Source: Thermoplasmatota archaeon (lineage in GTDB: Archaea > Thermoplasmatota > E2 > DHVEG-1). Taken from it: a stretch of 64,000 bases of DNA. The stretch covers positions 1,190 through 65,189 of the forward strand of contig JBFEOQ010000004.1 of the NCBI GenBank assembly GCA_041550515.1, read 5' to 3'. Shown piece after piece: positions 1,468 to 43,213 of this stretch (position 1 is the stretch's first letter; every line of letters starts with the position of its first letter). The position numbers and the translations under genes were made by a program. The notes beneath the pieces were generated by a model. It did no database searches and had not been told where the DNA came from. It saw only the letters and a list, made by a program, of their open reading frames with translations.

Positions 1468-1500
1468 GTCTTTTCCCTCTTATTATCAAAACAATTTATA

Positions 1501-2637: not shown

Positions 2638-2645
2638 AAAAAGTT

Positions 2646-3134: not shown

Positions 3135-3174
3135 AAACATTAATAACAGCCTTTATTTATCCCATTTTTTATTT

Positions 3175-4371: not shown

Positions 4372-4384
4372 ATTGGAAAAACAT

Positions 4385-21792: not shown

Positions 21793-21793
21793 G

Positions 21794-26419: not shown

Positions 26420-26845
26420 ATGGGTAAAAAAGTGGAAGGGAACCTTGATTTAAAATCACTGCAACTCAAAAAAGGGGAACTCCTTCAAGAAGTGGAAGAT
26501 TTGTGTGGAGAAAATCTTTTTGGTTGCTACCAGTGTGGAACTTGCACCGCTGGTTGCCCATTCATTGATGAAATGGATCTTTCTCCAGATGAAGTAATTA
26601 GATATGTAATATTAGATAGAAAGGAAGTTCTTAACTCAAAGACGATTTGGCTTTGTGCATCATGTTTTACATGTGCTGAGCGTTGCCCTCGTGATATTAA
26701 TATTACAAAGATTATGGAGGCTCTTCGTCAAATTATTCTTAGGAAAAAAATTGATAAAACAGATTTAAAGAAATTCTCAAAAGATGAAAAAGAAACAATA
26801 CCACAAATGGCATTTGTAAGCCTATTTAGAAAAAATATAGGGTAA
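26420..26845 (+). CDS. hdrC: heterodisulfide reductase subunit C
   Basis: 141 aa with CYQCGTCTAGCP and CASCFTCAERCP. The ATG directly follows the hdrA stop. Confidence 0.85.
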   Translation: MGKKVEGNLDLKSLQLKKGELLQEVEDLCGENLFGCYQCGTCTAGCPFIDEMDLSPDEVIRYVILDRKEVLNSKTIWLCASCFTCAERCPRDINITKIMEALRQIILRKKIDKTDLKKFSKDEKETIPQMAFVSLFRKNIG

Positions 26846-26850
26846 AAAAT

Positions 26851-28777: not shown

Positions 28778-30234
28778 AAACTATAACAATTGATCCCATA
28801 ACTCGACTTGAGGGTCATGGTAAAATTAATATTTTCCTTGATGCAAAGGGCGATGTAGCCAACGCATATTTACAGATTCCAGAATTAAGGGGTTTTGAGC
28901 GTTTTGCGCAAGGGCGAAGAGCTGAGGATATGCCTCAGATTACATCACGTATCTGTGGTGTATGTCCAGTTGCTCATCATTTTGCGTCAACTAAGGCATT
29001 AGATGCAGCATTTAATGTTGATCCACCATCTGCTGCAAAAAAACTCAGAGAATTAATGTACTCTGGATATTACATATACGATCATATCCTTCACTTTTAT
29101 TTTCTTGGTGGACCTGACTTTGTCGTTGGACCAGATGCACCTGCTGCAAAAAGAAACGTTCTTGGGGTTATTGAAAAAGCAGGAGTTGAAATAGGTAAAG
29201 AAGTTATTAAACATCGAGCATATGGTCAGAAAATTACTGCAATTTTGGGTGGTAAAGCAACTCATCCTGTTTGTGGTCTACCAGGTGGTATTTCTAAAGG
29301 ACTTAATAAAGACGAAGTAAAAGACATTGAAAAAATGACGAAATCTTGTATTGATTTTGCTAAATTCTCCTTGAAATTATTTAATGATATTGTATTAGCA
29401 AATAAGAATTATGTTGACTTAATTCTTAGTGATCCTTATCAATTAAAAACCTACAACATGGGACTTGTAGATAAAAACAACAAAGTAAATTTCTACGATG
29501 GTAAGATAAGAGTAACTGATCAACAAGGTAAAGAGAAAGTTAAATTCGATGTAAAAGACTATACAAAACACATTGCAGAACATGTTGAAGAGTGGACATA
29601 CATAAAATTCCCATATCTAAAAAGCGTAGGATGGAATGGAATGAAAGATGGTAAGGATAGCGGAATTTATAGAGTTGGACCACTTGGGAGACTTAATGCC
29701 GCTGATGGTATGGCTACTCCACTTGCAAATAAAGAATATAAGAAAATGTTTGAGATATTAGGTGGTAAAGCTGTGAATTCAACATTAGCATTTCACTGGG
29801 CAAGATTGATCGAACTTTTATATGCTACAGAAAGAACAATGGAATTAGTAAAAGATCCTGAAATAACCTCGACGAAGATTAGAAACCCCGTAGGTGAACC
29901 TGGTGAAGGTATAGGTGTAACTGAAGCTGCTCGAGGAACATTAATTCATCATTATAAACTTGATAAAAATGGACTCATAGATAAAGCTAATTTAATTGTT
30001 GCTACAACCAATAACTCAGGAGCTATAAATATGTCAATAAGAGATGCAGCTAAGGGTATTATTAAGAAAGGTAAGGTTAACGATGGATTGTTAAACATGG
30101 TTGAAATGGCATTCCGTGCGTATGATCCATGTTTTGCTTGTGCAACACATTCACTACCTGGAGGTATGCCTTTAGAAGTTAATATTTACAATAAAGAAAA
30201 AAAATTGTATAAAACCTTTAAACAAAATCTATAG
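28774..30234 (+). CDS. mvhA: [NiFe] hydrogenase large subunit, Mvh (group 3c) type
   Basis: 486 aa. The N-terminal Ni-Fe ligands are RICGVCPVAH and the C-terminal ligands are DPCFACATH, followed by a roughly 27-aa extension expected to be cleaved by the downstream protease. Confidence 0.9.
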   Translation: MKTITIDPITRLEGHGKINIFLDAKGDVANAYLQIPELRGFERFAQGRRAEDMPQITSRICGVCPVAHHFASTKALDAAFNVDPPSAAKKLRELMYSGYYIYDHILHFYFLGGPDFVVGPDAPAAKRNVLGVIEKAGVEIGKEVIKHRAYGQKITAILGGKATHPVCGLPGGISKGLNKDEVKDIEKMTKSCIDFAKFSLKLFNDIVLANKNYVDLILSDPYQLKTYNMGLVDKNNKVNFYDGKIRVTDQQGKEKVKFDVKDYTKHIAEHVEEWTYIKFPYLKSVGWNGMKDGKDSGIYRVGPLGRLNAADGMATPLANKEYKKMFEILGGKAVNSTLAFHWARLIELLYATERTMELVKDPEITSTKIRNPVGEPGEGIGVTEAARGTLIHHYKLDKNGLIDKANLIVATTNNSGAINMSIRDAAKGIIKKGKVNDGLLNMVEMAFRAYDPCFACATHSLPGGMPLEVNIYNKEKKLYKTFKQNL

Positions 30235-30248
30235 AGGAAAAATAGAAA

Positions 30249-30731
30249 ATGAAAACAATCATCCTAGGAGTTGGAAATTTGATATTAGGTGATGATGGAG
30301 TTGGTATCCACGTTGTTAATGAACTTAAAAAACAAATTCAATCACCTAATCCTAATCTTACTATCGATGAAGCTCTCACTGGAGGTATGAACTTATTGGA
30401 GCTAATCCTTGGATATGATAAAGCGATAATAGTTGATGCAGTAAGAACAAAAAATGGGAAAAATGGAGAAGTAAAAAGAATACCTCTCAATGATTTCTCT
30501 ACAGTTCATTCTTGTAATCCTCATGATGTGTCTCTTATAGAGGCTGTTGAAATGGCAAAAAAAATGGGAGAAAATCAAATTCCAAAAGAAATCATTATTA
30601 TAGGAGTAATGATGAAAGAAATACCTTGTGAATTTGGAGAAAATTTAAGTGAAAAAATTGCTGCAGCTGTTCCAAAGGCTGTGAATATGACTCTTAATGA
30701 AAGTAATAAAGATTTGAAAATTTCAAGTTGA
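30249..30731 (+). CDS. hydrogenase maturation endopeptidase (HycI/HybD/FrhD family)
   Basis: 160 aa with the ILGVGNLILGDDGVGIHV motif and later DAV...HD acidic/His residues. Confidence 0.8.
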   Translation: MKTIILGVGNLILGDDGVGIHVVNELKKQIQSPNPNLTIDEALTGGMNLLELILGYDKAIIVDAVRTKNGKNGEVKRIPLNDFSTVHSCNPHDVSLIEAVEMAKKMGENQIPKEIIIIGVMMKEIPCEFGENLSEKIAAAVPKAVNMTLNESNKDLKISS

Positions 30732-30744
30732 GGTGAAAAATAAA

Positions 30745-31167
30745 ATGACAGATAAATTTGAACCAAATATTATAGGTTTTTTATGTAACTGGTGTTCGTA
30801 TGCCGGTGCAGATCTAGCAGGAACAAGCAGGATAAAATATCCTCCAAACATAAAATCGATAAGAGTAATGTGCTCTGGGAGAGTTGATCCTGTTTTTATC
30901 CTTGAGGCATTGAGAAAAGGGGCAGATGGGGTGCTTGTTGCTGGCTGTCACCCAGGTGATTGTCACTATCAATCTGGAAATTACAAGACTAACCGTAGAA
31001 TTAGACTTTTAAAAAAGCTCCTTAGCGAAATGGCAATTGACCCTAACAGAGTTAGATTCGAATATGTTTCTGCTTCTGAAGGTCAAAAATTTGCACAGGT
31101 TGTAACCGACTTTGTGGATGAACTTAAAAAAATGGGACCTAACCCTTTAATAAAATTGAAAGCATGA
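30745..31167 (+). CDS. mvhD: methyl-viologen-reducing hydrogenase delta subunit (MvhD), copy 1
   Basis: Carries FEPNIIGFLCNWCSYAGADLAG and GCHPGDCHY. ATG 30745 is preferred (GAGGTGA lies 9 nt upstream). The track uses GTG 30733. Confidence 0.85.
   Translation: MTDKFEPNIIGFLCNWCSYAGADLAGTSRIKYPPNIKSIRVMCSGRVDPVFILEALRKGADGVLVAGCHPGDCHYQSGNYKTNRRIRLLKKLLSEMAIDPNRVRFEYVSASEGQKFAQVVTDFVDELKKMGPNPLIKLKA
30754..30815 (+). repeat. near-identical 5' coding block shared by the two mvhD copies (partner 31197-31258)
   Basis: There is 1 mismatch in 62 nt (a 50-nt perfect run, 30754-30803 = 31197-31246). Immediately downstream the copies differ at many synonymous positions. Confidence 0.85.
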
Positions 31168-31187
31168 AAAAAATTGGAGGTTAAAAA

Positions 31188-31616
31188 ATGAAAGAAAAAT
31201 TTGAACCAAATATTATAGGTTTTTTATGTAACTGGTGTTCGTATGCTGGTGCAGATCTTGCTGGAACTAGTAGAATTCAATATCCCCCAAATTTAAAAGT
31301 AATCCGAGTAATGTGTTCTGGTAGAGTAAATCCTATTTTTGTAATAAATGCACTTCAGCAAGGTGCAGATGGAGTACTCATTGGTGGTTGTCACCCGGGT
31401 GATTGTCACTATGAACGTGGTAATTATCTAGCAAGACGTCGAATTTCAGTATTAAAAAAACTTTTGGACTACACAGGTATTGATCCTAATAGAGTTAGGA
31501 TGACTTGGGTGTCTGCAGCTGAAGGACATAAATTTGCTGAAGTAGTAAAAGAAGTAACTGAGGATATAAGAAAATTAGGACCAATGCAACATTTCAAGAG
31601 GGGGAACAAATGGTAA
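31188..31616 (+). CDS. mvhD: methyl-viologen-reducing hydrogenase delta subunit (MvhD), copy 2
   Basis: 142 aa with the same motifs as copy 1. GGAGGT lies upstream of the ATG. Confidence 0.85.
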   Translation: MKEKFEPNIIGFLCNWCSYAGADLAGTSRIQYPPNLKVIRVMCSGRVNPIFVINALQQGADGVLIGGCHPGDCHYERGNYLARRRISVLKKLLDYTGIDPNRVRMTWVSAAEGHKFAEVVKEVTEDIRKLGPMQHFKRGNKW

Positions 31617-32593
31617 ACGAAAAAGAACTTCAAGATGCAGTTGAAAAAACTATAAAGAGAGATGATGTAAAATACATTGTTGGTTATGAAAAGGGAACTT
31701 ATGGATTCCAAGTAACCCCATCTTTTGCATATAAACCTGAAGATGCAAAAAAATTCATTTTTACACCATTATGTGTCCATAATTTAACTGTATTTCCCAT
31801 GCTAGAAGAGAAACCTCCACTTCGAAAAGGAGAAGAACCAGATTCACGTAAAGTTGGTGTTGTAGTAAAAGGATGTGACTCTAGAGCAGTTATTCAGATC
31901 ATACAAGAAAAGGGTTTAGATCGCGACAAAGTAGTGATAATTGGCATTCCTTGTACAGGAGTTGTTGATCCAAAGAAAATTGAAGCAAAATTTCCGGGTA
32001 TATCAAAAAATGCAGATGTAAAGGATGATGGCGATAAATTCATTATTTCACTAGATGGAAAAACTCACAAAATTGTCAAAGATGAATTAATGCCTGATAA
32101 ATGTAAAACATGCGAATATCCTACACCAATTCTCTATGATATACTTATAGGACAAGAAATTAAAAGCACGAAAAAAGAAGATTACAAAAATGTAAAAGAT
32201 TTTGAAAATACATCAATGAAAAACAAATGGGAATACTGGGAAAAACAATTTGATAAATGTATTCGTTGTTACGCCTGTAGAAATGCTTGTCCTCTTTGTT
32301 ATTGTAAAGAATGTATAGTTGATCAATTGGAACCTCAATGGGTACGTCGATCTGTAGATGTTTCTGAAAATACTGTTTGGAATCTTATACGTGCATTTCA
32401 CTTAGCGGGTAGATGTATTGGGTGTGGTCAGTGTGAACGCGTTTGTCCAATGGATTTACCTTTAATGGAACTTAACAAAAAACTTGAAAAAGATATCAAA
32501 GAGATGTTCGAATATATCCCAGGAATTAATGCCGAGGAAAAACCTCTTCTTGCAATGTTTAAACCTGATGATCCGGAGGAATTTATTTTGTGA
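31610..32593 (+). CDS. iron-sulfur protein, FlxC-like (2x[4Fe-4S] with extra Cys)
   Basis: 327 aa with VVKGCDSRAV, CIRCYACRNACPLCYCKEC and CIGCGQCERVCP. It sits between mvhD and the AsrA/AsrB-like pair, as in flxDCBA-type arrangements. Confidence 0.55.
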   Translation: MVNEKELQDAVEKTIKRDDVKYIVGYEKGTYGFQVTPSFAYKPEDAKKFIFTPLCVHNLTVFPMLEEKPPLRKGEEPDSRKVGVVVKGCDSRAVIQIIQEKGLDRDKVVIIGIPCTGVVDPKKIEAKFPGISKNADVKDDGDKFIISLDGKTHKIVKDELMPDKCKTCEYPTPILYDILIGQEIKSTKKEDYKNVKDFENTSMKNKWEYWEKQFDKCIRCYACRNACPLCYCKECIVDQLEPQWVRRSVDVSENTVWNLIRAFHLAGRCIGCGQCERVCPMDLPLMELNKKLEKDIKEMFEYIPGINAEEKPLLAMFKPDDPEEFIL

Positions 32594-32604
32594 GGTGAAA
32601 AAAG

Positions 32605-33627
32605 ATGGATAAATTAGTTTTATCAAAGGATGATCTTCAAAAATTTATTGATGAATTGTTAAAGAAAGATACAATTTATGCACCTGTTGAAGATAATGGA
32701 ACGGTTATATTTAATCAAATCAAGAAATCAAATGAACCAAATTTCAATTATCAAAACTCTAAATTCCCACCTAAAGCATTAATTTTTAACCAGACTGAAA
32801 CTTTATTTAAATTTAAACCAGGCCCAAAGGGCGATATTGAACCAATTAAAATTGATGAGAAAAAAATTATTTTTGGATTAAGACCATGTGATGCAAAAAG
32901 CCTTGCAATTCTTGATCATGCTTTTACTGGCGACTATAAGGATCCTTATTTCTTAAAAAGACGAGATAATTCAATCCTTATTGGCCTTGCTTGCATAAAA
33001 CCTGGTGTAAATTGTTTTTGTACCTCTCTTGATGATAGCCCAGCATCTTCAAAATATGTTGATATATTATTTACAGATATCGGTGATAAATACTATGTCG
33101 AAGTTATAACTGATAAAGGTAAACAAATTATAAAAAATGTAAGTAAATTCTTCAAACCTGCTAAAGAAAAAGATACTAAAAATAAAAAAGAAATAGAGAA
33201 ACGATCTATTAATTCAATTAAAAGAAGTCAAAAAACTGAGAAAATCGTTGAAAAATTAGATAAAATATTTGAAAACAAATTTTGGAAGGAAGTTGCAGAT
33301 AGATGTATTGGATGTGGAACTTGTACTTATTTATGTCCGACTTGTCATTGTTTTGATATCCAGGATGAATCAACGCTTACAAAAGGAGCACGTATTCGTG
33401 TTTGGGATACATGTATGAATCCAGAATATACTGTGCATGCATCAGGTTATAATCCACGACCTGCAAGAACAAATCGTGTTAGAAACCGAGTTTATCATAA
33501 ATACAACTACTACCCAAAAAATTTTGATATAATTGCATGTGTTGGATGCGGTCGTTGTATTGATTTATGCCCTGTAAATATCGATATAATTGATGTTGTT
33601 ACTCGTGCGGGGGAGGTGAAACCATGA
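32605..33627 (+). CDS. iron-sulfur protein of the AsrA / sulfhydrogenase beta (HydB) / FlxB type
   Basis: 340 aa with GLRPCDAKS, CIGCGTCTYLCPTCHCFD and CVGCGRCIDLCP. Confidence 0.65.
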   Translation: MDKLVLSKDDLQKFIDELLKKDTIYAPVEDNGTVIFNQIKKSNEPNFNYQNSKFPPKALIFNQTETLFKFKPGPKGDIEPIKIDEKKIIFGLRPCDAKSLAILDHAFTGDYKDPYFLKRRDNSILIGLACIKPGVNCFCTSLDDSPASSKYVDILFTDIGDKYYVEVITDKGKQIIKNVSKFFKPAKEKDTKNKKEIEKRSINSIKRSQKTEKIVEKLDKIFENKFWKEVADRCIGCGTCTYLCPTCHCFDIQDESTLTKGARIRVWDTCMNPEYTVHASGYNPRPARTNRVRNRVYHKYNYYPKNFDIIACVGCGRCIDLCPVNIDIIDVVTRAGEVKP

Positions 33628-34463
33628 AGGAAAATCCTTATGAACCTTGGCTTGCAACTGTCGAAGAAATAAGAAAGGAAGCCGGTGGTCAAAGGCCAAT
33701 AAAAACGTTTAAACTGAAATTCAAAGATAAAAAAATTCAAGAAAATTTCTCATATGTTCCTGGACAATGTGCAATGGTTAGTCTACTTGGTATGGGAGAA
33801 TGTTTCTTTGCAATATCTTCTTCTCCAACTAAAAAAGATTTTATTGAAGTAAGTGTAATGAAACTCGGTAAGGTAACCACTGCATTGCATGAATTAGAAC
33901 CTGGTGATACAGTAGGTGTTAGAGGTCCTTATGGTAATTACTTTGATGTCAATGGTTGGAAAGGTAAGAACCTTATTTTTATAGGAGGTGGTATAGGTCA
34001 AGCACCTCTTAGGTCTCTTATCCAATACGTTGTCGATAAGAGAAAAGACTATGGTAAACTTGATATAATTTACGGTGCTCGTACATCAAAAGATATCAGT
34101 TACAAAAAAGAATTTGAAGAACTTGAGAAACGCAAAGATGTAAATGTTCATCTTTCAATTGATGTAAAAGAGAACGGTTGGAAAAAGTTTGTTGGATTCG
34201 TACCAGATAATCTATTAAAAGTTAAACCATCACCAAAGAATTCTATTGCAATCACCTGTGGTCCACCAATTATGATTAAGTTTGTAATTCAAAATTTAGA
34301 GAAGTTAGGTTTTACCGAAGATCAAATTTTTACAACTCTTGAAATGAGAATGAAATGTGGAATTGGAAAATGTGGTAGATGTAATATTGGGAATCTTTAT
34401 GTATGTAAAGATGGCCCAGTGTTTTCATACAAACAATTGAAAAATATTTATGGAGAAAGATAG
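33624..34463 (+). CDS. FAD/NAD(P)H-binding 2Fe-2S flavoprotein of the AsrB / sulfhydrogenase gamma (HydG) / FlxA type
   Basis: 279 aa with the ferredoxin-NADP-reductase-like layout (PGQCAMVS, IGGGIGQAPLRS) and C-terminal CGIGKCGRCNIG...VCKDGPVF. Confidence 0.75.
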   Translation: MKENPYEPWLATVEEIRKEAGGQRPIKTFKLKFKDKKIQENFSYVPGQCAMVSLLGMGECFFAISSSPTKKDFIEVSVMKLGKVTTALHELEPGDTVGVRGPYGNYFDVNGWKGKNLIFIGGGIGQAPLRSLIQYVVDKRKDYGKLDIIYGARTSKDISYKKEFEELEKRKDVNVHLSIDVKENGWKKFVGFVPDNLLKVKPSPKNSIAITCGPPIMIKFVIQNLEKLGFTEDQIFTTLEMRMKCGIGKCGRCNIGNLYVCKDGPVFSYKQLKNIYGER

Positions 34464-34472: not shown

Positions 34473-36416
34473 ATGAAAATAGGAGTTTATGTTTGTCAAT
34501 GTGGAATTAACATTGCGCATACAGTAGACACTGAACGGGTTGTAGATCTTGTAAAGAATCTGCCAAATGTTGAAATTGCTCGTGACTATAAGTATATGTG
34601 CTCTGATCCTGGTCAAGAGCTAATAAAAAAGGATATCAATGAGATCAATCTTGATCGAGTTGTTGTTGCAAGTTGTTCTCCACGTATGCATGAGCCGACA
34701 TTTCGAAAAGTTCTTGAAGAATCAGGAATGAATCCATATTTTTTTGAAATGGTAAATTTAAGAGAGCAATGCTCATGGGTACATGAAGATAAAGAACAAG
34801 CTACTCTTAAATCAGTTGACCTTATTTCTGGAGCTGTTACACGTGCAACATTTTTGGAACCTCTCGAGAAGAAAAAAGTAAGTGTCATTCCAAAGGCACT
34901 TGTAATAGGTGGAGGTATTGCAGGTATTCAAGCAGCTTTGGGGATTGCAGATAAAGGTTTCAAGACATATCTAGTTGAGCGTAGCCCTAGTATTGGTGGT
35001 CGTATGGCTCAACTTGATAAAACATTTCCCACTCTTGATTGCTCTGCCTGTATTCTAACTCCTAAAATGGTTGATGTTGCTCGTCATCCAAATATTGAAC
35101 TTATGACCTATTCTGAAATAGAGAGTGTTGATGGATATATTGGTAATTTTAAAGTAAAAATAAAGAAGAAACCTAGATACATTGACATAGAAAAATGTGT
35201 GGGTTGCGGTAATTGTGCTGAAGCTTGTAGACTTCATGCTAGAATTCAAAATGAATTTGATATGAATCTGAGTAAACGTAGTGCAATTTATGTTCCATTT
35301 CCGCAGGCGGTACCCCTAAAATATACGATTGATCCTGATAAGTGCATTACTTTAAAAACTGGTAAATGTGGCGATCATGCTTTATGTATCGAAGCCTGTG
35401 ATAGAGATGCAATTAATTTTGATCAAAAAGAAGAAATTATAGAAATCGAAGTTGGAACAATTGTTGTAGCAACTGGTTTTGATTTATTTGATGCCAAAGA
35501 AAAACCAGAGTATGGTTATGGCAAGTATGAGAATGTGATTACTGGTTTAGAATTTGAAAGACTTGTTTCTGCATCAGGACCTACAAGTGGACACGTTGAA
35601 ATTAATGGTAAAGAACCTAAAAATGTTGTTTTCATCCAATGTGTTGGATCACGTGATAAAAAAACTAACGAATATTGCTCTCGTGTTTGTTGTATGTACA
35701 CAGCAAAACAGGCACATATGATTAAAGAAAAATTACCTAATGCAAATTTAATAATTTACTATACGGATGTTAGAGCTTTTGGTAAAGGTTTTGAAGAGTT
35801 TTATAACAGAGTACAAGGTGAAGGTATCATTTATAGACGTAGAGAGCTTGATGATTTAATTCAAATTAATAAGAAAGGGGATAAAACTATTATAAAAGCT
35901 GAAGGTCATCCTGATATCGAAGCTGATCTTGTTATTCTTGCAACAGGTATTATCCCACGTAAAGATTCAAAGGACTTCGCTAGAATTTTAAATATTAATC
36001 AAAGTGCTGATGGATTCTTTTTAGAGGCTCATCCAAAACTTAGACCAGTTGACACATTTACTGAAGGTATTTTCCTTGCAGGTTGTTGTCAGAGTCCTAA
36101 AGATATACCTGATGCTGTTGCTCAAGCGAGTGGGGCAGCGATTAGAGCATCTGAACCACTTGCAGCAGGAGAGGTTGAAGTAGAAGCGATTTCATCATAT
36201 ATCGATGAAGAATTATGTAGTGGTTGTAGAATTTGTGAAGATCTTTGTGCATACAATGCCTTGGAGTTTGATCTGAAAGAAAAAGTGATGCGAGTAAATG
36301 ATGTTATGTGTAAAGGTTGTGGAAGTTGTGCATCAGCTTGTCCAACTGGTGCTATTTCGATGAGACATTTCAATCTGAAACAAATACTCGCACAAATAGG
36401 AGGATTGACAAAATGA
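34473..36416 (+). CDS. hdrA: heterodisulfide reductase subunit A (canonical single-module form)
   Basis: 647 aa from ATG 34473 (AGGTGA lies upstream; the track uses GTG 34464). It has IGVYVCQCGINIA, LVIGGGIAGIQAA, LDKTFPTLDCSAC, an inserted Fd domain (CVGCGNCAEAC...CIEACD), CVGSRD..YCSRVCCMYT and a C-terminal CSGCRICEDLC/CKGCGSCASACP. Confidence 0.9.
   Translation: MKIGVYVCQCGINIAHTVDTERVVDLVKNLPNVEIARDYKYMCSDPGQELIKKDINEINLDRVVVASCSPRMHEPTFRKVLEESGMNPYFFEMVNLREQCSWVHEDKEQATLKSVDLISGAVTRATFLEPLEKKKVSVIPKALVIGGGIAGIQAALGIADKGFKTYLVERSPSIGGRMAQLDKTFPTLDCSACILTPKMVDVARHPNIELMTYSEIESVDGYIGNFKVKIKKKPRYIDIEKCVGCGNCAEACRLHARIQNEFDMNLSKRSAIYVPFPQAVPLKYTIDPDKCITLKTGKCGDHALCIEACDRDAINFDQKEEIIEIEVGTIVVATGFDLFDAKEKPEYGYGKYENVITGLEFERLVSASGPTSGHVEINGKEPKNVVFIQCVGSRDKKTNEYCSRVCCMYTAKQAHMIKEKLPNANLIIYYTDVRAFGKGFEEFYNRVQGEGIIYRRRELDDLIQINKKGDKTIIKAEGHPDIEADLVILATGIIPRKDSKDFARILNINQSADGFFLEAHPKLRPVDTFTEGIFLAGCCQSPKDIPDAVAQASGAAIRASEPLAAGEVEVEAISSYIDEELCSGCRICEDLCAYNALEFDLKEKVMRVNDVMCKGCGSCASACPTGAISMRHFNLKQILAQIGGLTK
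34588..34741 (+). repeat. near-identical nucleotide block shared by the two adjacent hdrA genes (partner 36527-36680)
   Basis: By hand alignment at constant offset 1939 there are 4 mismatches in 154 nt, and 34648-34741 is a 94-nt perfect match to 36587-36680. Confidence 0.85.
34986..35093 (+). repeat. near-identical nucleotide block shared by the two adjacent hdrA genes (partner 36925-37032)
   Basis: By hand alignment at offset 1939 there are 2 mismatches in 108 nt. Confidence 0.85.
35531..35701 (+). repeat. near-identical nucleotide block shared by the two adjacent hdrA genes (partner 39148-39318)
   Basis: By hand alignment at offset 3617 there are 6 mismatches in 171 nt, including perfect runs of 63 and 71 nt. 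Confidence 0.85.
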
Positions 36417-39400
36417 AGGTAGGTGTTTATGTCTGTGAGTGTGGAATTAATATTGCATCTACTGTTGACGTTAAAAAAGTTGCAGAACGTGCAAAATCTC
36501 TTCCAAATGTTGCAGTTAGCCGTTTTTATAAGTATATGTGCTCTGATCCTGGACAGGAGCTTATAAAAAAGGATATCAATGAGATGAATCTTGATCGAGT
36601 TGTTGTTGCAAGTTGTTCTCCACGTATGCATGAGCCGACATTTCGAAAAGTTCTTGAAGAATCAGGAATGAATCCATATTGCCTTGAAATGATAAACATT
36701 AGAGAACAGTGTTCATGGGTTCATAAAGACCGAGAGATGGCTACTGAAAAAGCATTTGATCTTGTAAAAAGTGCTGTTCTTCATGCATCTCTTTTAAAAC
36801 CATTAGATAAGAAAGCTGTTGATGTCACTCCTGCAGCTTTAGTTATTGGTGGTGGTATTGCTGGTATACAAACAGCACTTGACATCGGACAAATGGGTTT
36901 TAAAACTTATCTTGTTGAAAAAACCCCTAGTATTGGTGGTCGTATGGCTCAACTTGATAAAACATTTCCCACTCTTGATTGCTCTGCCTGTATTTTAACT
37001 CCTAAAATGGTTGATGTCGCTCGTCATCCAAACGTTGAGCTTCTTACATATTCAGAGATTGTTGGAATCGACGGTTATGTAGGTAATTTTAATGTTAAAA
37101 TTAAAAAGAAACCACGCTACATTGATGTAGATAAATGTACTGGCTGTGGTGAATGTTTCAATGGTTGTCCGGTAGAATTGCCGAATGAGTTTGATATGGA
37201 TAAGGCCATAAGACATGCTATATATACGCCATTTCCACAAGCAGTCCCACTTAAGGCAACTATTGATAAACGTGGTATACATCCTTGTAGAGATGCCTGT
37301 CCAGCAGGAGTTGGAGCACCTGGTTATGTTACTCTTATTGGACGAGGTAAATTCTATGAGGCACTTCGAGTAATTAAAGAACGTTTGCCGTTTCCTTCTG
37401 TTTGTGGAAGAGTATGCCATAGACCATGTGAGAAAACTTGTACACGTAAAGATATTGATGAGCCTCTTGGGATAGCTCACCTAAAAAGATTTGTTGGTGA
37501 TTTAGAACTTAATATACCAGCTATGGAAGTTCCTCCAATTGAAACTAAAGCAGAAAGTGTTGCGATTATTGGTGGTGGACCTGCAGGTCTTACTGCTGCT
37601 CATGACCTTGCATTAAAAGGATATCACGCAACAGTTTTTGAAGCAGCACCAGTACTTGGCGGTATGATGAGATGGGGTATTCCTGCTTTTCGTTTACCTA
37701 AAGAAATCATTGAACGTGAGATATCTGATATTCTAGCTCTTGGTGTAAGAGTTCAACTTAACACAAAGCTTGGGAGAGATTTCACTATTCCGGATTTATT
37801 TAAACGTGGTCATAAAGCTATTTTCCTTGCTGTTGGAGCACAACTTGGTAAAAAAATGACTATTCCCGGTGAGGAATTAAATGGTGTATTTCAAGCAATT
37901 GACTTTTTAAAGGAATTAAATCTTGGAAAGATAATCTCAACACCAATTGCAGAAATTGATGATGATCTTTGTATCGGGTGTGGAAAATGCGCAGAAGTAT
38001 GTTACTATGGAATAATTCATTTAATACCAGATGAACTTGATCCTAACAAGAAATATCCCACAATTCATAAGAAATACTTATGTAAAGGTTGTGGTAAATG
38101 CGCCTTTGTTTGTCCATCAAAAGCAATTAAATTAAGTGGGTTCAAAAATATTGCTCCAAAAATTGGAAAGAAAGTAATGGTTATAGGTGGAGGAAACGCT
38201 GCACTTGACACTGCAAGATCTGCATTACGTTTAGGCGCAGATGATGTTGCTATTTTATATCGCCGATCACGTGAAGAAATGCCTGCAGAACCTGATTGGG
38301 AGATTGATGAAACTCAAGCTGAAGGCGTACGACTTGTTTATCTTATTGCTCCAACAAAAATCGTAAGTGATGATAAAGGAAATGTTAAAGGAATTGAATG
38401 CATCAGAATGGAGTTGTTAGATGAGCTTGATAATAGTGGTAGACGAAAAATAAAATCAATTCCTAAATCTGAGTTTATTATCAATTGTGATAGTGTAATT
38501 CTTGCTATTGGCCAAGAGGTAGACACAGATATATTATCAAAGGATGTAAAATTAGAAGTGACACCCTGGAGTTCAAAGAGAGTTGATCCTCTTTCATTTC
38601 CGAAAAATGGGTTTGATGATATAGAATTAACTCCTTGGAGTACAATTCACGCTGATTCATTGACATTGGAAACCAATATTAAAGGTGTTTTTTCAGGTGG
38701 TGATGCAGTATGGGGTGCTGGAACCATAATAGAAGCTATTAGTGCTGGAAAAGAAGCCGCAGAATCAATTGATAGATATCTATCTGGTAAAGATCTGAGA
38801 GAAGGTCGTGAAGAGAAACCCGAAATTGCAGAACCATCTATAGAGGGTGTAAAAAAGAAAGTAAAAATTCCTATGAAATATATAGATCTTAAAGATAGAA
38901 AAAACAATTTCAAAGAAGTTGAATTAGGTTATTCTGAAGAAGAAGCAATTGAAGAGGCTAGACGTTGTTTAGATTGTGGTGGTTGCTCTGAATGTTTTGA
39001 ATGTGTTCAGACCTGTGAAGCTGGTGCAATTGATCATAATGCAAAACCTGAGATAATTGATGTAAAAGTTGGAGCTATTGTTGTTGCAACAGGTTTTGAT
39101 CTTTTTGATCCACTAGCAAAACCAGAATATGGATATGGTAAATACAAGAATGTGATTACTGGTTTAGAATTTGAAAGACTTGTTTCTGCATCAGGACCTA
39201 CAAGTGGACATATTGAGATTAAAGGTAAAGAACCTAAAAATGTTGTTTTCATCCAATGTGTTGGATCACGTGATAAAAAAACTAACGAATATTGTTCTCG
39301 TGTTTGTTGTATGTATACTGCTAAACAAGCTCATCTTGTTAAAGAGAAAATACCTGATTCAAATCTAGTTTTGTATTATACTGATATGAGAGCTTTTGGT

Positions 39401-40051
39401 AAAGGTTTTGAAGAGTTTTATAACAGAGTAAAAGGTGAAGGTATTACTTATAGACGTAGAAATCTTGATGATCCAATTGAAGTAAAGATGATAGATGGAA
39501 AGACTATAGTTAAAGCTAAAGGTCATCCTGATGTGCAAGCTGATCTTGTTATTCTTGCAACAGGTATTATCCCACGTAAAGATTCAAAAGATTTAGCAAG
39601 ATTACTGAATATTAATCAAAGTTCAGATGGTTTTCTTTTAGAGGCTCATCCAAAGCTTAAACCAGTTGATACATTTACCGATGGTATTTTCCTTGCAGGT
39701 TGTTGTCAAAGTCCAAAGGATGTACCAGATACTGTTGCACAAGCCAGTGGTGCTGCATCTAGAGCATGTGATATTATTTCTAAAAAACAGTTATTAATTG
39801 AAGCAACGATTGCAAATGTTAATGAGGATTTATGCCGTGGCTGCGGCATTTGTGTTGAGTCATGTCCATATAAAGCAATTGAATTAAAAGAAGTTGATCG
39901 CAATGGACATAAGATACTTATAGTTACTGTAAATGAAGCTTTATGTAAAGGATGTGGTTCTTGTTCCGCTGCATGTTTGAATAGTGCAATTGGTCATCTA
40001 GGTTTTACCGATAGTCAAATCCTTGCTATGATCAAGGCTTTAGGAGAATGA
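36413..40051 (+). CDS. HdrA with a nested GltD/NfnB-like NAD(P)H:FAD oxidoreductase module (HdrL-like)
   Basis: 1212 aa from ATG 36413, in a 4-nt ATGA overlap with the preceding hdrA stop (the track ORF from 36317 is an out-of-context extension). HdrA motifs flank a roughly 560-aa insert carrying PFPSVCGRVCHRPCEKTC, VAIIGGGPAGLTAAHDL, VMVIGGGNAALDTA and GVFSGGDAVWG. Confidence 0.85.
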   Translation: MKVGVYVCECGINIASTVDVKKVAERAKSLPNVAVSRFYKYMCSDPGQELIKKDINEMNLDRVVVASCSPRMHEPTFRKVLEESGMNPYCLEMINIREQCSWVHKDREMATEKAFDLVKSAVLHASLLKPLDKKAVDVTPAALVIGGGIAGIQTALDIGQMGFKTYLVEKTPSIGGRMAQLDKTFPTLDCSACILTPKMVDVARHPNVELLTYSEIVGIDGYVGNFNVKIKKKPRYIDVDKCTGCGECFNGCPVELPNEFDMDKAIRHAIYTPFPQAVPLKATIDKRGIHPCRDACPAGVGAPGYVTLIGRGKFYEALRVIKERLPFPSVCGRVCHRPCEKTCTRKDIDEPLGIAHLKRFVGDLELNIPAMEVPPIETKAESVAIIGGGPAGLTAAHDLALKGYHATVFEAAPVLGGMMRWGIPAFRLPKEIIEREISDILALGVRVQLNTKLGRDFTIPDLFKRGHKAIFLAVGAQLGKKMTIPGEELNGVFQAIDFLKELNLGKIISTPIAEIDDDLCIGCGKCAEVCYYGIIHLIPDELDPNKKYPTIHKKYLCKGCGKCAFVCPSKAIKLSGFKNIAPKIGKKVMVIGGGNAALDTARSALRLGADDVAILYRRSREEMPAEPDWEIDETQAEGVRLVYLIAPTKIVSDDKGNVKGIECIRMELLDELDNSGRRKIKSIPKSEFIINCDSVILAIGQEVDTDILSKDVKLEVTPWSSKRVDPLSFPKNGFDDIELTPWSTIHADSLTLETNIKGVFSGGDAVWGAGTIIEAISAGKEAAESIDRYLSGKDLREGREEKPEIAEPSIEGVKKKVKIPMKYIDLKDRKNNFKEVELGYSEEEAIEEARRCLDCGGCSECFECVQTCEAGAIDHNAKPEIIDVKVGAIVVATGFDLFDPLAKPEYGYGKYKNVITGLEFERLVSASGPTSGHIEIKGKEPKNVVFIQCVGSRDKKTNEYCSRVCCMYTAKQAHLVKEKIPDSNLVLYYTDMRAFGKGFEEFYNRVKGEGITYRRRNLDDPIEVKMIDGKTIVKAKGHPDVQADLVILATGIIPRKDSKDLARLLNINQSSDGFLLEAHPKLKPVDTFTDGIFLAGCCQSPKDVPDTVAQASGAASRACDIISKKQLLIEATIANVNEDLCRGCGICVESCPYKAIELKEVDRNGHKILIVTVNEALCKGCGSCSAACLNSAIGHLGFTDSQILAMIKALGE

Positions 40052-40074: not shown

Positions 40075-40554
40075 ATGGGTATTGATTTTAATGCAGATGA
40101 AGTTTTTGAAATGGCCGAACAAATCGAAAGAAATGGTGCAAAATTCTACAGATCAACAGCTGAAAAAATTAAAGAAACTAATAAAAAACAACTTTTAGCA
40201 AATCTAGCAAAAATGGAGGATGAACATGAAAAAACATTTAGAGTATTAAGATCTGAACTTTCCACTGATGAAAAAATTCAAACAACTTTTGATCCTGAAG
40301 GAGATTCAGAACGTTATCTACGTGCGCTTGCAGATACTAGGGTTTTTTATGAAAAAGAGGTTATCCCTACATCGTTGGAAGATATTCTCAAATTTGCTAT
40401 TACCATCGAAAAGGATTCAATAGTTTTCTACTTAGGTTTAAAAGATATTGTTCCAGTGCATCTTGGTAAACAAAAACTTGATGATATTATAAAAGAAGAA
40501 ATGGGTCATATTCGCCTTCTTAGTAAGGAATTAATCGAACTCAATAAATATTGA
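40075..40554 (+). CDS. rubrerythrin/ferritin-like di-iron four-helix-bundle protein
   Basis: 159 aa with two ExxH motifs (MEDEHEKTF, KEEMGHIRL) and paired upstream Glu residues (MAEQIERNGAKFY, IEKDSIVFY). Confidence 0.65.
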   Translation: MGIDFNADEVFEMAEQIERNGAKFYRSTAEKIKETNKKQLLANLAKMEDEHEKTFRVLRSELSTDEKIQTTFDPEGDSERYLRALADTRVFYEKEVIPTSLEDILKFAITIEKDSIVFYLGLKDIVPVHLGKQKLDDIIKEEMGHIRLLSKELIELNKY

Positions 40555-40602
40555 TTTAATAGGAAAATTTAGGTAATAATAAAATAATATGATGTATGAA
40601 TT

Positions 40603-42030
40603 ATGTTAAAAGAAATGTTAAAAGATTTGAAAAAGTTGAATGGAGAGAATTTCAAAACAGATACAGCTGTATGTTATTCTTATTCTTCAGATGCAAGTAT
40701 TTACCGACATTTACCTGATGCAGTTGTACGTCCAAAGAATACAAAAAATATTGTTGATATTGTTAGACTTGCGAATAAATATAAGATACCATTAATCCCT
40801 AGAGGTGGAGGTACTGGACTTTGTGGAGGTGCTGTTGCTATAAACGGAGGCATCATTATTGATATGCAGTACATGAATAAAGTAAAAGAAATTCAACCTG
40901 AAAATTTATATTGTATAGTCGAACCAGGTGTTATATATGACGAATTAAATCGCCAATTAAAAAACTATAAATATACATTTCCAGGATCTCCAGGTAGTGG
41001 AGAAGCAGCAACTATTGGAGGTATGGTTGCAACTAATGCATCAGGTATGCGAGCTGTAAAATATGGTGCTACTCGTGATTATGTTCTTGGTTTGGAAATT
41101 GTCCTTCCTACAGGAGAAATTATGAAATGTGGTACGCATACCTTGAAAAACAGTAGTGGTTATCAAATTGAAAAGTTAATAGTTGGTTCTGAAGGTACTT
41201 TGGGAATAATCACAGAAATTACCTTAAAAATCATTCCATTACCAAAGAGCCAGATAACTGCACTTGTAACATTTGATGAATTGGTATCTGCAGGTCAAGC
41301 AATCTCAAATATTATTGCATATCCAATTATTCCATCTTCAATGGAGATAATGGATAGTTTGAGTATTGTTGCAGTAAACAAAGGAACTGATGCAAAACTT
41401 CCAGATGTTGAAGCAATACTTATTATCGAGTGTGATGGACCCATCGAAGAAGTTCGTCGAGAAATGTCTATTGTCGAAAAAATATGTAGAGAAAGTGGAG
41501 CGAGAGATATAACTATATCTGAAAAACCAGAAGTATTTAATAAATGGCATAAAGCACGAAAATCTGTTTTACCTGCATTAGGAAAATATCGCCCGGATTT
41601 GAAGATTGTTTCTTTAGTCGATGACATGGCAGTTCCAATTTCAAAGATTGCCCAGTTGATTATAGCTATTAAGAAGATAAGTAAAAATAACAATATTCTA
41701 ATCACTACATATGGACATGCAAGTGACGGTAACCTTCATTCAAAAGTCTTACTCGATCCAACCAATAAAGATGATTGGAAACGAGCTGAAATAACCGTTA
41801 AACAAGTATATGATGCTGTTTTGAAATTAGATGGCACAGTTTCTGGTGAACATGGTGTGGGGATATCAAAAGCTCCCTTTATGATAAAAGAAAGGAAAAA
41901 TGCTATAGGTACTATGAAAGCAATAAAAAAAGTATTTGATCCAAATAATATTATGAATCCCGGGAAAACGTTTGAATGGGATAAAGAATATATTATTACA
42001 AATCTTCGATATCCTGCAAAGGTGGACTAA
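40603..42030 (+). CDS. FAD-linked oxidase, GlcD / D-lactate dehydrogenase family
   Basis: 475 aa with PRGGGTGLCGGAV and the C-terminal GTVSGEHGVGISK...DPNNIMNPGK. Confidence 0.85.
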   Translation: MLKEMLKDLKKLNGENFKTDTAVCYSYSSDASIYRHLPDAVVRPKNTKNIVDIVRLANKYKIPLIPRGGGTGLCGGAVAINGGIIIDMQYMNKVKEIQPENLYCIVEPGVIYDELNRQLKNYKYTFPGSPGSGEAATIGGMVATNASGMRAVKYGATRDYVLGLEIVLPTGEIMKCGTHTLKNSSGYQIEKLIVGSEGTLGIITEITLKIIPLPKSQITALVTFDELVSAGQAISNIIAYPIIPSSMEIMDSLSIVAVNKGTDAKLPDVEAILIIECDGPIEEVRREMSIVEKICRESGARDITISEKPEVFNKWHKARKSVLPALGKYRPDLKIVSLVDDMAVPISKIAQLIIAIKKISKNNNILITTYGHASDGNLHSKVLLDPTNKDDWKRAEITVKQVYDAVLKLDGTVSGEHGVGISKAPFMIKERKNAIGTMKAIKKVFDPNNIMNPGKTFEWDKEYIITNLRYPAKVD

Positions 42031-42031
42031 C

Positions 42032-43213
42032 ATGGTTCCAAATATTAAAGGTGATAAGTTAAAAGAGTTTTTTGATCAAACGATGTTATGCACCTCGTGT
42101 GGATATTGTAAGTCGGTTTGTCCAACCTTCAAATCAACTCTTTGGGAAAATAATTCTGCACGCTCAAAAATTATGTTAGCCTATGGTCTTATTAAGGGAG
42201 AAATTAAACCTGATGATTCAATAGTTCAATCCATTTTTGAATGTACAGGATGCGAAGATTGCATGAGAAGATGCCCATCGAAAGTAGAAACTATTAAAAT
42301 AATTATGGCGACTAGAAGCGAGCTTGCTAACCTAAATTTAATACCTGATAATATAAGAATTGCTTTAGATAATATAAAAAAATCAGGTAATCCATTAGGG
42401 GAACTAAAAGAAAAACGCATTGATTTTATTCCAGAAAAAGCTAAAAAAAGAATTGGAAAAGGCGCTGAAGTTTTACTTTACCTTGGGTGTACAACCTCAT
42501 TCCAAGAAATGAAAATGGCAAAAAGTATCTTTGAAGTTATGGAACGTAGTGGTATTGATTATACATTTTTAGGGAAAGAAGAACCATGTTGCGGATTCTT
42601 GAATTATCTTTCAGGATATAATATAATGGAATTTGGTAAACAAATGATAAAAGCAATGAATACACTTAAACTAAAACCAAAAACAATTGTGACATCATGC
42701 CCAGGATGTTTTAGAACATTTAATATTATTTATCCGAAAGAAGGTGTATACTTAGATGTTAATGTTAAACATATTACTGAATTCCTTAAAGAACTTATAG
42801 AAAATGGAAATCTCATCGTAAGTAAAAAATTGGAAGGTAAAGTATTATATCATGATCCTTGTGATCTTGGAAGAAATTGTAATTATTATGATCAACCAAG
42901 AAAATTATTATCCCATTTCACTGATGTCCAGGAATTTGAATACAATAGAGATGAGGCGCATTGCTGTGGTGGTGGAGGAGGTCTTCAATCAACAAATTAT
43001 GCATTAACAACCGATATTGCTAAAAAAAGAATAAAAGAAGCATTAGATTTGAACGCGGATATGATTGTAACAGCTTGTCCTGCATGTAAATCAACATTAT
43101 TAAATGCAGCATTTGAGATGAGGGCAGAGTTTGGAAAAAAGATAAAAATAAAAGATATAGTTGAGATTGTTGAACGAAATACTATTAAAAAGGATTCTGC
43201 CTTTTCTACTTGA
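42032..43213 (+). CDS. Fe-S oxidoreductase, GlcF / HdrD-like (2x[4Fe-4S] plus two CCG domains)
   Basis: 393 aa from ATG 42032, 1 nt after the glcD-like stop. It has CTSCGYCKSVCP and CTGCEDCMRRCP, with CCG motifs EPCCGFLN and AHCCGGGGGLQ. Confidence 0.85.
   Translation: MVPNIKGDKLKEFFDQTMLCTSCGYCKSVCPTFKSTLWENNSARSKIMLAYGLIKGEIKPDDSIVQSIFECTGCEDCMRRCPSKVETIKIIMATRSELANLNLIPDNIRIALDNIKKSGNPLGELKEKRIDFIPEKAKKRIGKGAEVLLYLGCTTSFQEMKMAKSIFEVMERSGIDYTFLGKEEPCCGFLNYLSGYNIMEFGKQMIKAMNTLKLKPKTIVTSCPGCFRTFNIIYPKEGVYLDVNVKHITEFLKELIENGNLIVSKKLEGKVLYHDPCDLGRNCNYYDQPRKLLSHFTDVQEFEYNRDEAHCCGGGGGLQSTNYALTTDIAKKRIKEALDLNADMIVTACPACKSTLLNAAFEMRAEFGKKIKIKDIVEIVERNTIKKDSAFST

Follow-up and report, generated by a model that had tools for sequence, protein, structure and literature searches.

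A Thermoplasmatota HdrA interrupted by a GltD-type module that itself carries a ferredoxin insertion

Electron-bifurcating complexes built on HdrA set the energetic limits of many anaerobes. To our knowledge, the wiring of NAD(P)H into such complexes is known biochemically for Moorella only. Here we analyze a 64,000-nucleotide (nt) stretch of DNA (the window) from a Thermoplasmatota archaeon (assembly GCA_041550515.1, contig JBFEOQ010000004.1), in which one gene, at 36413-40051 on the plus strand, encodes an HdrA homolog of 1212 amino acids (aa). A GltD-type NAD(P)H module is nested within the inserted ferredoxin domain of this fusion protein, and the module itself carries a further 2x[4Fe-4S] ferredoxin domain. 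The basic HdrA-GltD architecture is already known, as HdrL in 2009, as HdrA9-11 of anaerobic methanotrophic archaea (ANME-1) in 2022, as type III HdrA in 2025 and as the HdrA of Moorella. Since these have been published, the architecture is less novel than was assumed in a preliminary description of the window, which was made from the sequence alone.

HdrL of Desulfobacterium autotrophicum was reported to fuse heterodisulfide reductase with glutamate synthase and to have a site for NADH (Strittmatter 2009, PMC2702500). The likeness to HdrL noted in the preliminary description fits when the proteins are compared by published description: both are large Hdr/glutamate-synthase fusions with an NAD(P)H site, co-located with mvhD. 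HdrL1 and HdrL3 are selenoproteins, the latter with a fumarate-reductase-like region, whereas the open reading frame (ORF) studied here has no in-frame TGA. The order of genes also differs, as mvhD directly follows the HdrL gene, whereas in the window the mvhD genes lie upstream and a rubrerythrin-like gene lies downstream. Among Desulfobacteraceae metagenome-assembled genomes (MAGs), four loci (L011, L017, L020, L024) encode fusions of ~1110 aa that are 50-55% identical to our protein, lack the extra ferredoxin and are followed by mvhD.

The name type III HdrA comes from a 2025 survey based on predicted structures, the accessible part of which proposes that the GltD domain blocks ferredoxin access and passes electrons from NAD(P)H to the FAD (Microbiol Spectr, PMC12054007). 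According to the accessible parts of that survey and of the ANME-1 study (PMC9012536), the type III proteins (HdrA9/10/11; ANME-1 and Bathyarchaeota) resemble ours in having a GltD/NfnB-like module of ~500 aa splitting the inserted ferredoxin domain, and their genes often stand in tandem with other hdrA and mvh genes. Within the same scope, they differ in a reported GxGxxG (NADH-type) motif, where our protein has GxGxxA and YRRS (NADPH-type), and in the extra 73-aa 2x[4Fe-4S] domain, which is a feature of our module only. Our host is also a non-methane-metabolizing Thermoplasmatota archaeon, unlike the ANME-1 hosts. The only member of the fusion family with a measured activity, assigned to it by domain description, is the HdrA of the Moorella thermoacetica MetFV-HdrABC-MvhD complex, in which a domain resembling thioredoxin reductase (TrxR) is interrupted by a GltD domain, each HdrA has two FAD and NADH:benzyl viologen activity reaches 190 U/mg (PMC9430772/PMC5861303). 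That GltD domain binds [4Fe-4S], FAD and NAD(P)H, as is predicted for ours. The Moorella HdrA (1487 aa) is fused to a second HdrA, matching by description the class D proteins defined below, whereas at our locus the second HdrA has a gene of its own next to the fusion; the Moorella protein uses NADH, and no extra ferredoxin is described in its GltD domain.

Three features of our locus appear to be unreported in the accessible literature: a clade of fusions with an extra ferredoxin, a circular permutation common to Bfu-type enzymes and stand-alone relatives, and a Lys-type cluster ligand, which argues against a second bifurcation site. No mention of the permutation or of the Lys ligand was found in the accessible type III HdrA literature, nor any description of the ferredoxin insert in the accessible papers on the ANME-1, type III and Moorella fusions.

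An HdrA core interrupted by a GltD-type module

The gene is an uninterrupted ORF of 1212 codons, with an ATG at 36413 and a stop at 40051. The program-listed ORF spans 36317-40051. We prefer the ATG at 36413 because it overlaps the TGA of the upstream hdrA (ATGA), lies 8 nt behind a GGAGGA and gives a protein whose first residues align to HdrA residue 5. The parts of the gene are as follows.

36413-40051, plus strand: whole gene, for an HdrA of 1212 aa in which the GltD-type module and the additional ferredoxin are nested (continuous ORF, 29 same-length clusters, AlphaFold)
36413-37273, plus strand: HdrA aa 1-287, with the N-terminal Fe-S domain, the opening portion of the TrxR-like FAD domain (GGGIAG), C190/C193 and Cys motif 1 (alignment to 5odc_A)
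37274-38983, plus strand: GltD-type cassette, aa 288-857 (PDB matches 9bov_A, 386 bits; 9n5u_A, 359; 4ylf_B, 335; 8oh5_C, 315)
37274-37546, plus strand: Fe-S region of the cassette (Pfam Fer4_20)
37547-37942, plus strand: FAD-binding Rossmann domain of the cassette (GGGPAG; R427)
37943-38161, plus strand: third-level insert, a 73-aa 2x[4Fe-4S] ferredoxin domain at the FAD/NADPH-domain junction, replacing NfnB/StnC residues in one clade
38162-38812, plus strand: domain for NAD(P)H binding (GGGNAA, YRRSRE), after which the chain re-enters the FAD domain (GGDAV), with a low-confidence loop at aa 706-735
38855-38983, plus strand: permuted segment equivalent to the NfnB N-terminus (KKVKIPMK...EARRCLDC), giving C852 and C855 to the predicted distal cluster (NfnB alignment)
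38984-40048, plus strand: HdrA C-terminal part (5odc_A residues 293-647, 343 bits)

An HdrA2 model matches the protein at E = 1.9e-263, split into aa 2-298 and 851-1210. In alignment with the HdrA of M. thermolithotrophicus (5odc_A), aa 2-287 correspond to residues 5-291 (437 bits) and aa 858-1208 to the C-terminal part, which fixes the junctions. The insert consists of 570 aa (aa 288-857), which take the place of a single residue of canonical HdrA directly before the first Cys of motif 2 in the inserted ferredoxin domain. These limits make exact the rough 37270-38960 of the preliminary description. That account also had ~437 nt of the neighboring hdrA replaced by ~2115 nt; the two stretches measure 117 and 1800 nt between the anchors that it named, although the difference of ~1680 nt agrees. 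Without aa 288-857, the fusion is 69% identical to the neighboring HdrA over 651 aa.

The remaining chain has the four-domain layout of HdrA (N-terminal, TrxR-like FAD, inserted ferredoxin and C-terminal ferredoxin domains) and shares every cluster Cys with the canonical HdrA of MvhADG-HdrABC (5odc_A), Cys motif 1 of the inserted ferredoxin domain being C242, C245, C248 and C252. The junction C852-x2-C855-GG-C858-x2-C861-x2-C864-x3-C868 is invariant in an alignment of 52 diverse relatives, as are all other cluster Cys. The pair Glu356/Lys409 (M. thermolithotrophicus numbering) is a signature of the bifurcating HdrA flavin (PMC9430772/PMC5861303). Its equivalents here, E921/K971, are invariant in 52/52 sequences, and the neighboring HdrA carries the same motifs as the core of the fusion. 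With these residues we show a canonical HdrA core that is predicted to be competent for bifurcation. The equivalog cut-offs for the methanogen CoB-CoM HdrA are missed (HdrA2, 876 bits against 1100; HdrA, 626 against 1400), and by these scores the protein is a homolog of HdrA and not the methanogen enzyme. As for canonical MvhADG-HdrABC, mvhADG and hdrBC are present in the gene array. Our protein differs from canonical HdrA in the insert, which would cap the ferredoxin-docking domain, in falling below the NCBIfam HdrA cut-offs and in a host that is not a methanogen.

The length of the ORF is unusual for an HdrA, and the GC content is 0.38-0.39 over 36000-38000 as against 0.33-0.36 in the flanks. 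Both might be read as signs of an assembly or annotation artefact joining hdrA and gltD/nfnB, or of a decaying pseudogene, but we give this explanation next to no probability. The ORF is free of internal stops, the junctions are kept across phyla, and separated HdrA halves would not function. Moreover, 29 further clusters at 90% identity (P0002-P0030), drawn from separate JGI, ENA and NCBI contigs, have 1212-1213 aa and are 79-92% identical to our protein; these independent assemblies contradict the joining of two genes that the preliminary description had held open. An AlphaFold model of residues 1-1200 is confident over the whole chain (mean predicted local distance difference test score, pLDDT, 83.7; predicted template modeling score, pTM, 0.71). 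When this model was searched with Foldseek, HdrA structures matched the whole chain around a gap of ~560 residues (TM-score 0.82, normalized to the length of our protein), and the GltD-like domains of NfnABC, StnC and NfnB matched over the insert. Selenocysteine or a frameshift was considered for the ORF and rejected, there being no in-frame stop or TGA.

The GltD/NfnB-type module that had been proposed for the insert was recovered far above chance by Pfam and NCBIfam searches. GltD-type models match at E = 4.5e-146 (PRK12771) and E = 1.5e-111 (gltA), and the Pfam matches are Fer4_20 (aa 290-365), a Fer4 dicluster (512-575) and Pyr_redox_2 (584-725), with the FAD Rossmann domain beginning at aa 382. 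All of the motifs quoted in the preliminary description are in place: PFPSVCGRVCHRPCEKTC at aa 326 (nt 37388-37441), VAIIGGGPAGLTAAHDL at aa 383, CIGCGKCAEVC / CKGCGKCAFVCP at aa 520-567 (nt 37970-38116), VMVIGGGNAALDTA at aa 588, GVFSGGDAVWG at aa 758 and CLDCGGCSECFECVQTC at aa 852-868. The Fer4 dicluster bears out the further 2x[4Fe-4S] unit that was placed at about 37960-38140 inside the GltD-like part, and domain searches, alignments and the AlphaFold model agree on the nesting at three levels, with the ferredoxin inside the GltD-type module, the module inside the inserted ferredoxin domain and that domain inside HdrA. At aa 706-735 (window 38528-38617), LEVTPWSSKRVDP and IELTPWSTIHADS resemble a small internal hairpin duplication in the cassette; this region has pLDDT <50 and is ~24 aa shorter in homologs of 1188 aa.

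Permutation, cluster ligands and cofactor of the cassette

Comparison with Thermotoga maritima NfnB indicates that the segments of the cassette are reordered. NfnB residues 45-462 correspond to aa 290-793 (phmmer), and NfnB residues 2-42, ending RCLQC, correspond to aa 815-855, ending RRCLDC, past the C-terminal end of the module. Both HdrA/module junctions therefore fall between NfnB Cys43 and His45, and by this alignment the cassette is circularly permuted relative to NfnB. It follows from the position of the junctions that CLDCGGCSECFECVQTC is composite, two Cys of the module being followed by the CxxCxxCxxxC of HdrA. The preliminary description had taken the entire motif as the resumed half of the HdrA ferredoxin domain, which holds for the last four Cys only, as C852 and C855 belong to the GltD module. 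The permutation also brings both cassette ends to the distal [4Fe-4S] cluster, so that this cluster would be bound two residues from HdrA's own Cys motif. Given the two-residue spacing from C855 to C858, close contact between the distal cluster of the cassette and the HdrA cluster is very likely.

The permuted order is widespread. The GltD-like domains of StnC (8oh5_C) and of NfnA, a subunit of NfnABC (9bov_A, 9n5u_A), are colinear with the insert through the RCLxC segment. In an exhaustive HMMER search of 1.84 billion representatives, almost all of the 150 top-ranked matches had the permuted segment after the C-terminal end of the module, and it was found in every architecture class of the HdrA-GltD fusions. 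There are also stand-alone permuted relatives of 490-590 aa, starting SPC..ACP and ending RCLRC. The cassette thus looks like a reusable plug-in with both of its ends at one terminal cluster.

The NfnABC structure paper gives Cys108, Cys147, Cys151 and Lys170 as ligands of the flavin-proximal cluster A7. According to the Stn paper, K170 of StnC is the same Lys ligand, NfnB has Glu there, and StnC is a GltD domain embedded in a NuoG-like host, with a flavin that does not bifurcate. Using alignments whose numbering reproduces the published C114, K170 and R239, we infer C296, C335, C339 and K358 as ligands of the proximal cluster and C292, C343, C852 and C855 as ligands of the distal cluster. K358 is Lys in 51/52 relatives, and its counterpart in T. 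maritima NfnB is Glu. The Arg close to flavin N5 corresponds to R427, which is invariant in our family and conserved in bifurcating and non-bifurcating enzymes alike.

In both sequence and structure, the best match to the cassette is the StnC/NfnABC domain, which is likewise inserted in a host Fe-S protein and shares the order from PC..ACP to RCLxC, the proximal-cluster Lys and NADPH-type motifs. It differs in its NuoG/FdhF-like host with NuoE/F-like partners, in bifurcation at a distant FMN site and in having no ferredoxin insert at the FAD/NADPH junction. The host here is HdrA, and no GltB, NuoE, NuoF or NuoG domain was found in any annotated ORF of the window. NfnB (4ylf_B, 5jca_L) shares the fold, two [4Fe-4S] clusters, FAD, a YRRT-type NADPH site and the Arg near flavin N5, but it is unpermuted (N-terminal helix and CxxC first), has the Glu ligand and stands free, paired with NfnA, with its flavin as the bifurcation site. 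Because of the permuted order and the Lys ligand, the cassette is closer to StnC/NfnABC than to NfnB or true GltD, and on present knowledge it resembles a non-bifurcating NADPH-input domain. Identity as a true NfnB was rejected, since both the segment order and the Glu ligand differ. Identity as a true GltD was also rejected on scores of 217 against 447.7 (TIGR01317) and 266 against 483 (TIGR01318), with GltB lacking from the window. The same permuted, Lys-liganded cassette is found in HdrA and in the NuoG-like host of Bfu-type transhydrogenases, and the residue mapping offers targets for mutagenesis and structural work in K358, C852/C855 and the eight Cys of the ferredoxin insert.

These comparisons bear on whether the fusion has two bifurcation sites, the second being an NfnB-like cassette FAD that would bifurcate the electrons of NADPH, sending one along the [4Fe-4S] chain to HdrA and the other out by a second route, with the extra 2x[4Fe-4S] domain in the role of the [2Fe-2S] cluster of NfnA. 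Two sites were suggested for the ANME-1 HdrA-NfnB fusions in the accessible part of Chadwick et al. (PMC9012536). The closeness of the module to T. maritima NfnB (335 bits; 37% identity over the Foldseek alignment) and the invariant R427 are in keeping with this idea, as are the position of the extra ferredoxin at the hinge of the FAD and NADPH domains, its eight strictly conserved Cys and a PyrK/NfnA-family (HydG-like) protein encoded two genes upstream. We nevertheless regard two sites as unlikely. The proximal ligand is the Lys of non-bifurcating StnC/NfnABC and not the Glu of NfnB, the permuted topology is common to the module and the non-bifurcating domains, and most family members lack the extra ferredoxin, so that a second outlet is no general feature. 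The HydG-like protein, moreover, scores 223 bits to sulfhydrogenase gamma and 54 to NfnA, and it occurs with plain HdrA in other phyla.

The GGGNAA (GxGxxA) and YRRSRE motifs of the cassette match the NADPH-binding NfnB and StnC (both YRRT), and the cassette is predicted to prefer NADP(H). In a group of fusions of ~1117 aa without the extra ferredoxin (P0091, P0096, P0098-P0102), the sequence that follows the second strand of the NAD(P) domain is LETRD and not YRRSR. An acidic residue at this position is expected to favor NADH, which suggests NADH rather than NADPH specificity for these members of the same family.

The extra ferredoxin and its distribution

The extra ferredoxin is predicted to bind its clusters through C520, C523, C526, C530, C557, C560, C563 and C567, and its ~73 residues replace ~8 of NfnB and 2 of StnC/NfnABC. 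Among single domains in the PDB, it is matched best by the C-terminal ferredoxin of HdrA (52 bits, 5odc_A residues 575-640), the same region is matched in four other HdrA structures, and NuoI (33 bits) and PsaC (31 bits) score lower. Identity between the insert and this HdrA domain is 40-45% within the family, and duplication of that domain is a reasonable origin for the insert.

We grouped the fusions by length and architecture. Class A proteins (1184-1215 aa), such as ours, have the extra ferredoxin, and in class D proteins (1500-1580 aa) an N-terminally shortened fusion and a second HdrA form one chain. In the set of the 120 closest homologs, the extra ferredoxin occurs in class A and in many class D proteins and was not found in class B (~1100-1130 aa) or class C (~1287 aa). 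Class C members such as P0068-P0078, P0081, P0084 and P0090 (~1247-1292 aa) carry two NAD(P)H-binding domains and lack the ferredoxin insert. In a neighbor-joining tree of the cassettes, built with the insert columns removed, the bearers of the extra ferredoxin form one clade (77/79 sequences); the two insert-free members nested within it are probably losses. Beyond the close homologs, none of ~50 fusion loci among the matches listed from species-representative genomes and none of the 150 best representatives of the exhaustive HMMER search had the extra ferredoxin. A word-index search with aa 470-640, which returned only fragments of <=300 aa and missed the source protein, was superseded by the HMMER search. 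On this distribution, the extra ferredoxin is a lineage-specific addition. It may relay electrons through added Fe-S clusters or offer a partner a place to dock.

The alternative that the insert is a neutral structural decoration, without a role in electron transfer, we consider unlikely. It would fit with the lack of the insert in most of the family, including the characterized Moorella-type proteins, with its apparent loss in the two nested members and with a pLDDT of 68-86, below that of the surrounding domains. However, all eight Cys are 100% conserved across 84 copies of sequences that are only ~55-60% identical overall, and the insert is kept in both the single-HdrA and the fused-HdrA architectures.

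By sequence, the HdrA-GltD fusion as such is widespread, the fusion loci among the matches listed coming from Desulfobacteraceae, Dehalococcoidia, Bathyarchaeia, Hadarchaeota, Thorarchaeota, Aminicenantes, Acetothermia and others. That scan used patterns generic to HdrA and so gauges breadth and is not a census, the class A genes of the source lineage not being among the matches listed. The SucC encoded in the window is 80-82% identical to that of the Thermoplasmatales archaea SG8-52-1, SG8-52-3, SCGC AB-540-F20 and M9B1D, archaeal Hjc and PorA models match window proteins, and SCGC AB-539-N05 encodes a partial homolog of the fusion with 77% identity. We take these five to be genomes of Marine Benthic Group D (MBG-D, Thermoprofundales), which are among the most abundant archaea of marine sediments, with an energy metabolism known from genomes alone, and on this basis we assign the window to an MBG-D-like archaeon. 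MBG-D archaea would then carry a distinct, NADPH-type subfamily of HdrA fusions, of at least 77 clusters at 90% identity, with one Fe-S domain more than any relative described in the accessible literature.

One Thermoplasmata MAG has a different NADH module at the same position (L041; CAZTGJ010000056.1, 244-5141). There, the HdrA halves are split: the N-terminal part is fused to a NuoE-like [2Fe-2S] domain (244-1497, with an in-frame TGA at 1495-1497 that may end translation, encode selenocysteine or reflect an error of sequencing), a NuoF-like FMN/NADH protein follows (1498-3366), and a NuoG-N-terminal-like domain is fused to the C-terminal part (3363-5141). Genes for MvhD, FrhB-like, HydB-like and HydG-like proteins, MvhG and MvhA lie downstream. 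The inserted ferredoxin domain of HdrA looks like a hot spot at which NAD(P)H modules are taken up.

Proposed electron path and gene neighborhood

We consider it likely that the fusion is a functional type III HdrA that wires NADP(H) into a bifurcating HdrA/HdrA' heterodimer, with the extra ferredoxin as a lineage-specific addition. NADPH would reduce the cassette FAD, and single electrons would pass from the Lys-liganded proximal cluster to the distal cluster, then by way of both clusters in the inserted ferredoxin domain to the flavin of HdrA, or they would run the opposite way. The wiring of NAD(P)H into an HdrA flavin suggested in the preliminary description finds support here, although it would not be direct, as a chain of at least four [4Fe-4S] clusters is predicted to lie between. 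The cassette would occupy the site where soluble ferredoxin normally docks, and its flavin, like that of StnC/NfnABC, would simply convert between two-electron and one-electron transfer and would not be a second site of bifurcation. The capped protomer would pair with the adjacent plain HdrA, whose ferredoxin site would stay free, and with MvhD. The basis for such a heterodimer is that a plain HdrA adjoins the fusion here and in relatives, and that the two are one chain in class D.

The complex would couple NADP(H) (~-320 mV) with a couple at ~-200 mV and a low-potential carrier; these potentials are textbook values quoted in the Moorella-complex paper (PMC9430772/PMC5861303). The ~-200 mV couple might be a 2-hydroxyacid acting through GlcD/HdrD or a disulfide acting through HdrBC, with methylenetetrahydrofolate through MetFV in a relative. 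The low-potential carrier could be ferredoxin from the pyruvate:ferredoxin oxidoreductase (POR) encoded upstream, or H2 through Mvh. Several observations weigh against this assignment. Both HdrA paralogs are complete, so that no complementary loss of domains compels them to pair, in contrast to class D and the ANME proteins. The partner genes differ between relatives (GlcD/HdrD or MetFV), which leaves the physiological reaction uncertain. The Lys-versus-Glu rule is drawn from few solved enzymes. Finally, NADH is the cofactor of the Moorella enzyme and GxGxxG is ascribed, in the accessible text, to the published type III HdrAs, and so cofactor preference varies within the family, that of our protein being predicted from its motifs.

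The fusion lies in a run of same-strand genes from 20611 to 43213 that begins with POR subunits. Beside the fusion, the run includes the following.

23132-27732, plus strand: double-TrxR (type II-like) HdrA, HdrC and HdrB
27767-30731, plus strand: MvhG, MvhA ([NiFe] hydrogenase) and maturation protease
30733-31616, plus strand: two tandem MvhD genes, 30733-31167 and 31188-31616 (NCBIfam VhuD, HdrA2 C-terminal region)
31610-34463, plus strand: FrhB-like Fe-S protein, HydB/AsrA-like Fe-S protein and HydG/AsrB-like FAD/NAD(P)H protein
34473-36416, plus strand: neighboring plain HdrA, 647 aa, 69% identical to the core of the fusion
40075-43213, plus strand: rubrerythrin-like protein, GlcD-like FAD-linked 2-hydroxyacid dehydrogenase and HdrD-like Fe-S/CCG protein

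A look-up on public contigs found no gene on record for exactly this protein, which is itself in the protein collection, and two close relatives (P0006 and P0067) were used to compare this neighborhood. In a relative that is 88% identical (L084), the core order of MvhD, FrhB-like, HydB-like, HydG-like, plain HdrA, fusion and rubrerythrin-like genes is kept, and the cluster also encloses a GlcD-like gene that is more distant (44% identical). In a class A relative that is 63% identical (L081), plain HdrA and the fusion are followed by MvhD, MetV and MetF. The block of MvhD, FrhB-like, HydB/AsrA-like and HydG/AsrB-like genes (31188-34463 in the window) is also found beside HdrA with or without the GltD cassette in Heimdallarchaeota, Hadarchaeota, Bacillota, Dehalococcoidia and others (L003, L008, L041, L044, L049, L051, L053-L057, L061, L062, L075). 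Since it also occurs with plain HdrA, the block is independent of the cassette. It resembles a separate module that would partner HdrA and provide it with NAD(P)H. The HydG-like protein has NAD_binding_1, FAD_binding_6 and [2Fe-2S] domains.

With two pyridine-nucleotide modules in one gene array, the HydG-like protein and the GltD cassette, both of families that compose NfnAB, the locus might instead encode an Nfn-like transhydrogenase within an Hdr complex. The HydG-like protein would handle NAD(H), the cassette NADP(H), and the HdrA flavin would couple NADH, NADPH and ferredoxin. This is very unlikely in our judgment. The HydB/HydG-like pair occurs with plain HdrA at cassette-free loci, and cassette-bearing HdrAs occur without the pair, as in L081 with MetFV, so the two modules are independent; the cofactor specificity of the HydG-like protein is also a prediction. 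Another arrangement, which we judge quite unlikely, would have the extra ferredoxin as a duplicate of the C-terminal ferredoxin domain of HdrA, which docks MvhD. The cassette FAD would then gain a second one-electron outlet or inlet and become a true second site of bifurcation or confurcation, or MvhD and hydrogenase a further place to dock, in a tandem two-flavin machine that would couple H2, NADPH, ferredoxin and a 2-hydroxyacid or disulfide couple. We know of no counterpart to such wiring among the characterized bifurcating enzymes, and were the extra ferredoxin a second outlet from the cassette flavin, it would be a new type of wiring for electron bifurcation.

Several details of the array may be recorded. 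The double-TrxR HdrA has 1095 aa, its listed ORF start overlaps the POR gamma gene, and a pattern search did not find the LExER motif in it. The accompanying HdrC (26420-26845) and HdrB (26851-27732) genes lie directly upstream of mvhGA. The two MvhD genes match in number the two HdrA paralogs downstream, and in L084 there are three genes with FlpD domains, of which one is a fusion with an Fe-S protein. In the neighboring HdrA, the second Cys motif of the inserted ferredoxin domain (aa ~288-311) is unusually spaced and reads C-x8-C-x5-C-x3-C, not CxxCxxCxxxC, and the first ends CR rather than CP. The rubrerythrin/ferritin-like gene (40075-40554, plus strand), of whose product only the first ~70 residues match the rubrerythrin model, keeps its place 3' of the fusion in close relatives (80% identity in L084 and L085).

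Elsewhere in the window, an ORF of 878 aa at 10072-12708 (minus strand) has no Pfam or NCBIfam match, and scans of the window for tRNA and Rfam families returned nothing. There are two POR operons (6399-9351, minus strand; 20611-23223, plus strand), a LarA-family nickel-dependent 2-hydroxyacid racemase (47440-48696, plus strand), a second GlcD-like/HdrD-like pair (57993-60846, minus strand) and a protein with an NrfH-like multihaem region (61670-63139, plus strand). The GlcD/HdrD pair, LarA, the NrfH-like protein and the POR operons point to 2-hydroxyacid and pyruvate metabolism around the Hdr array.

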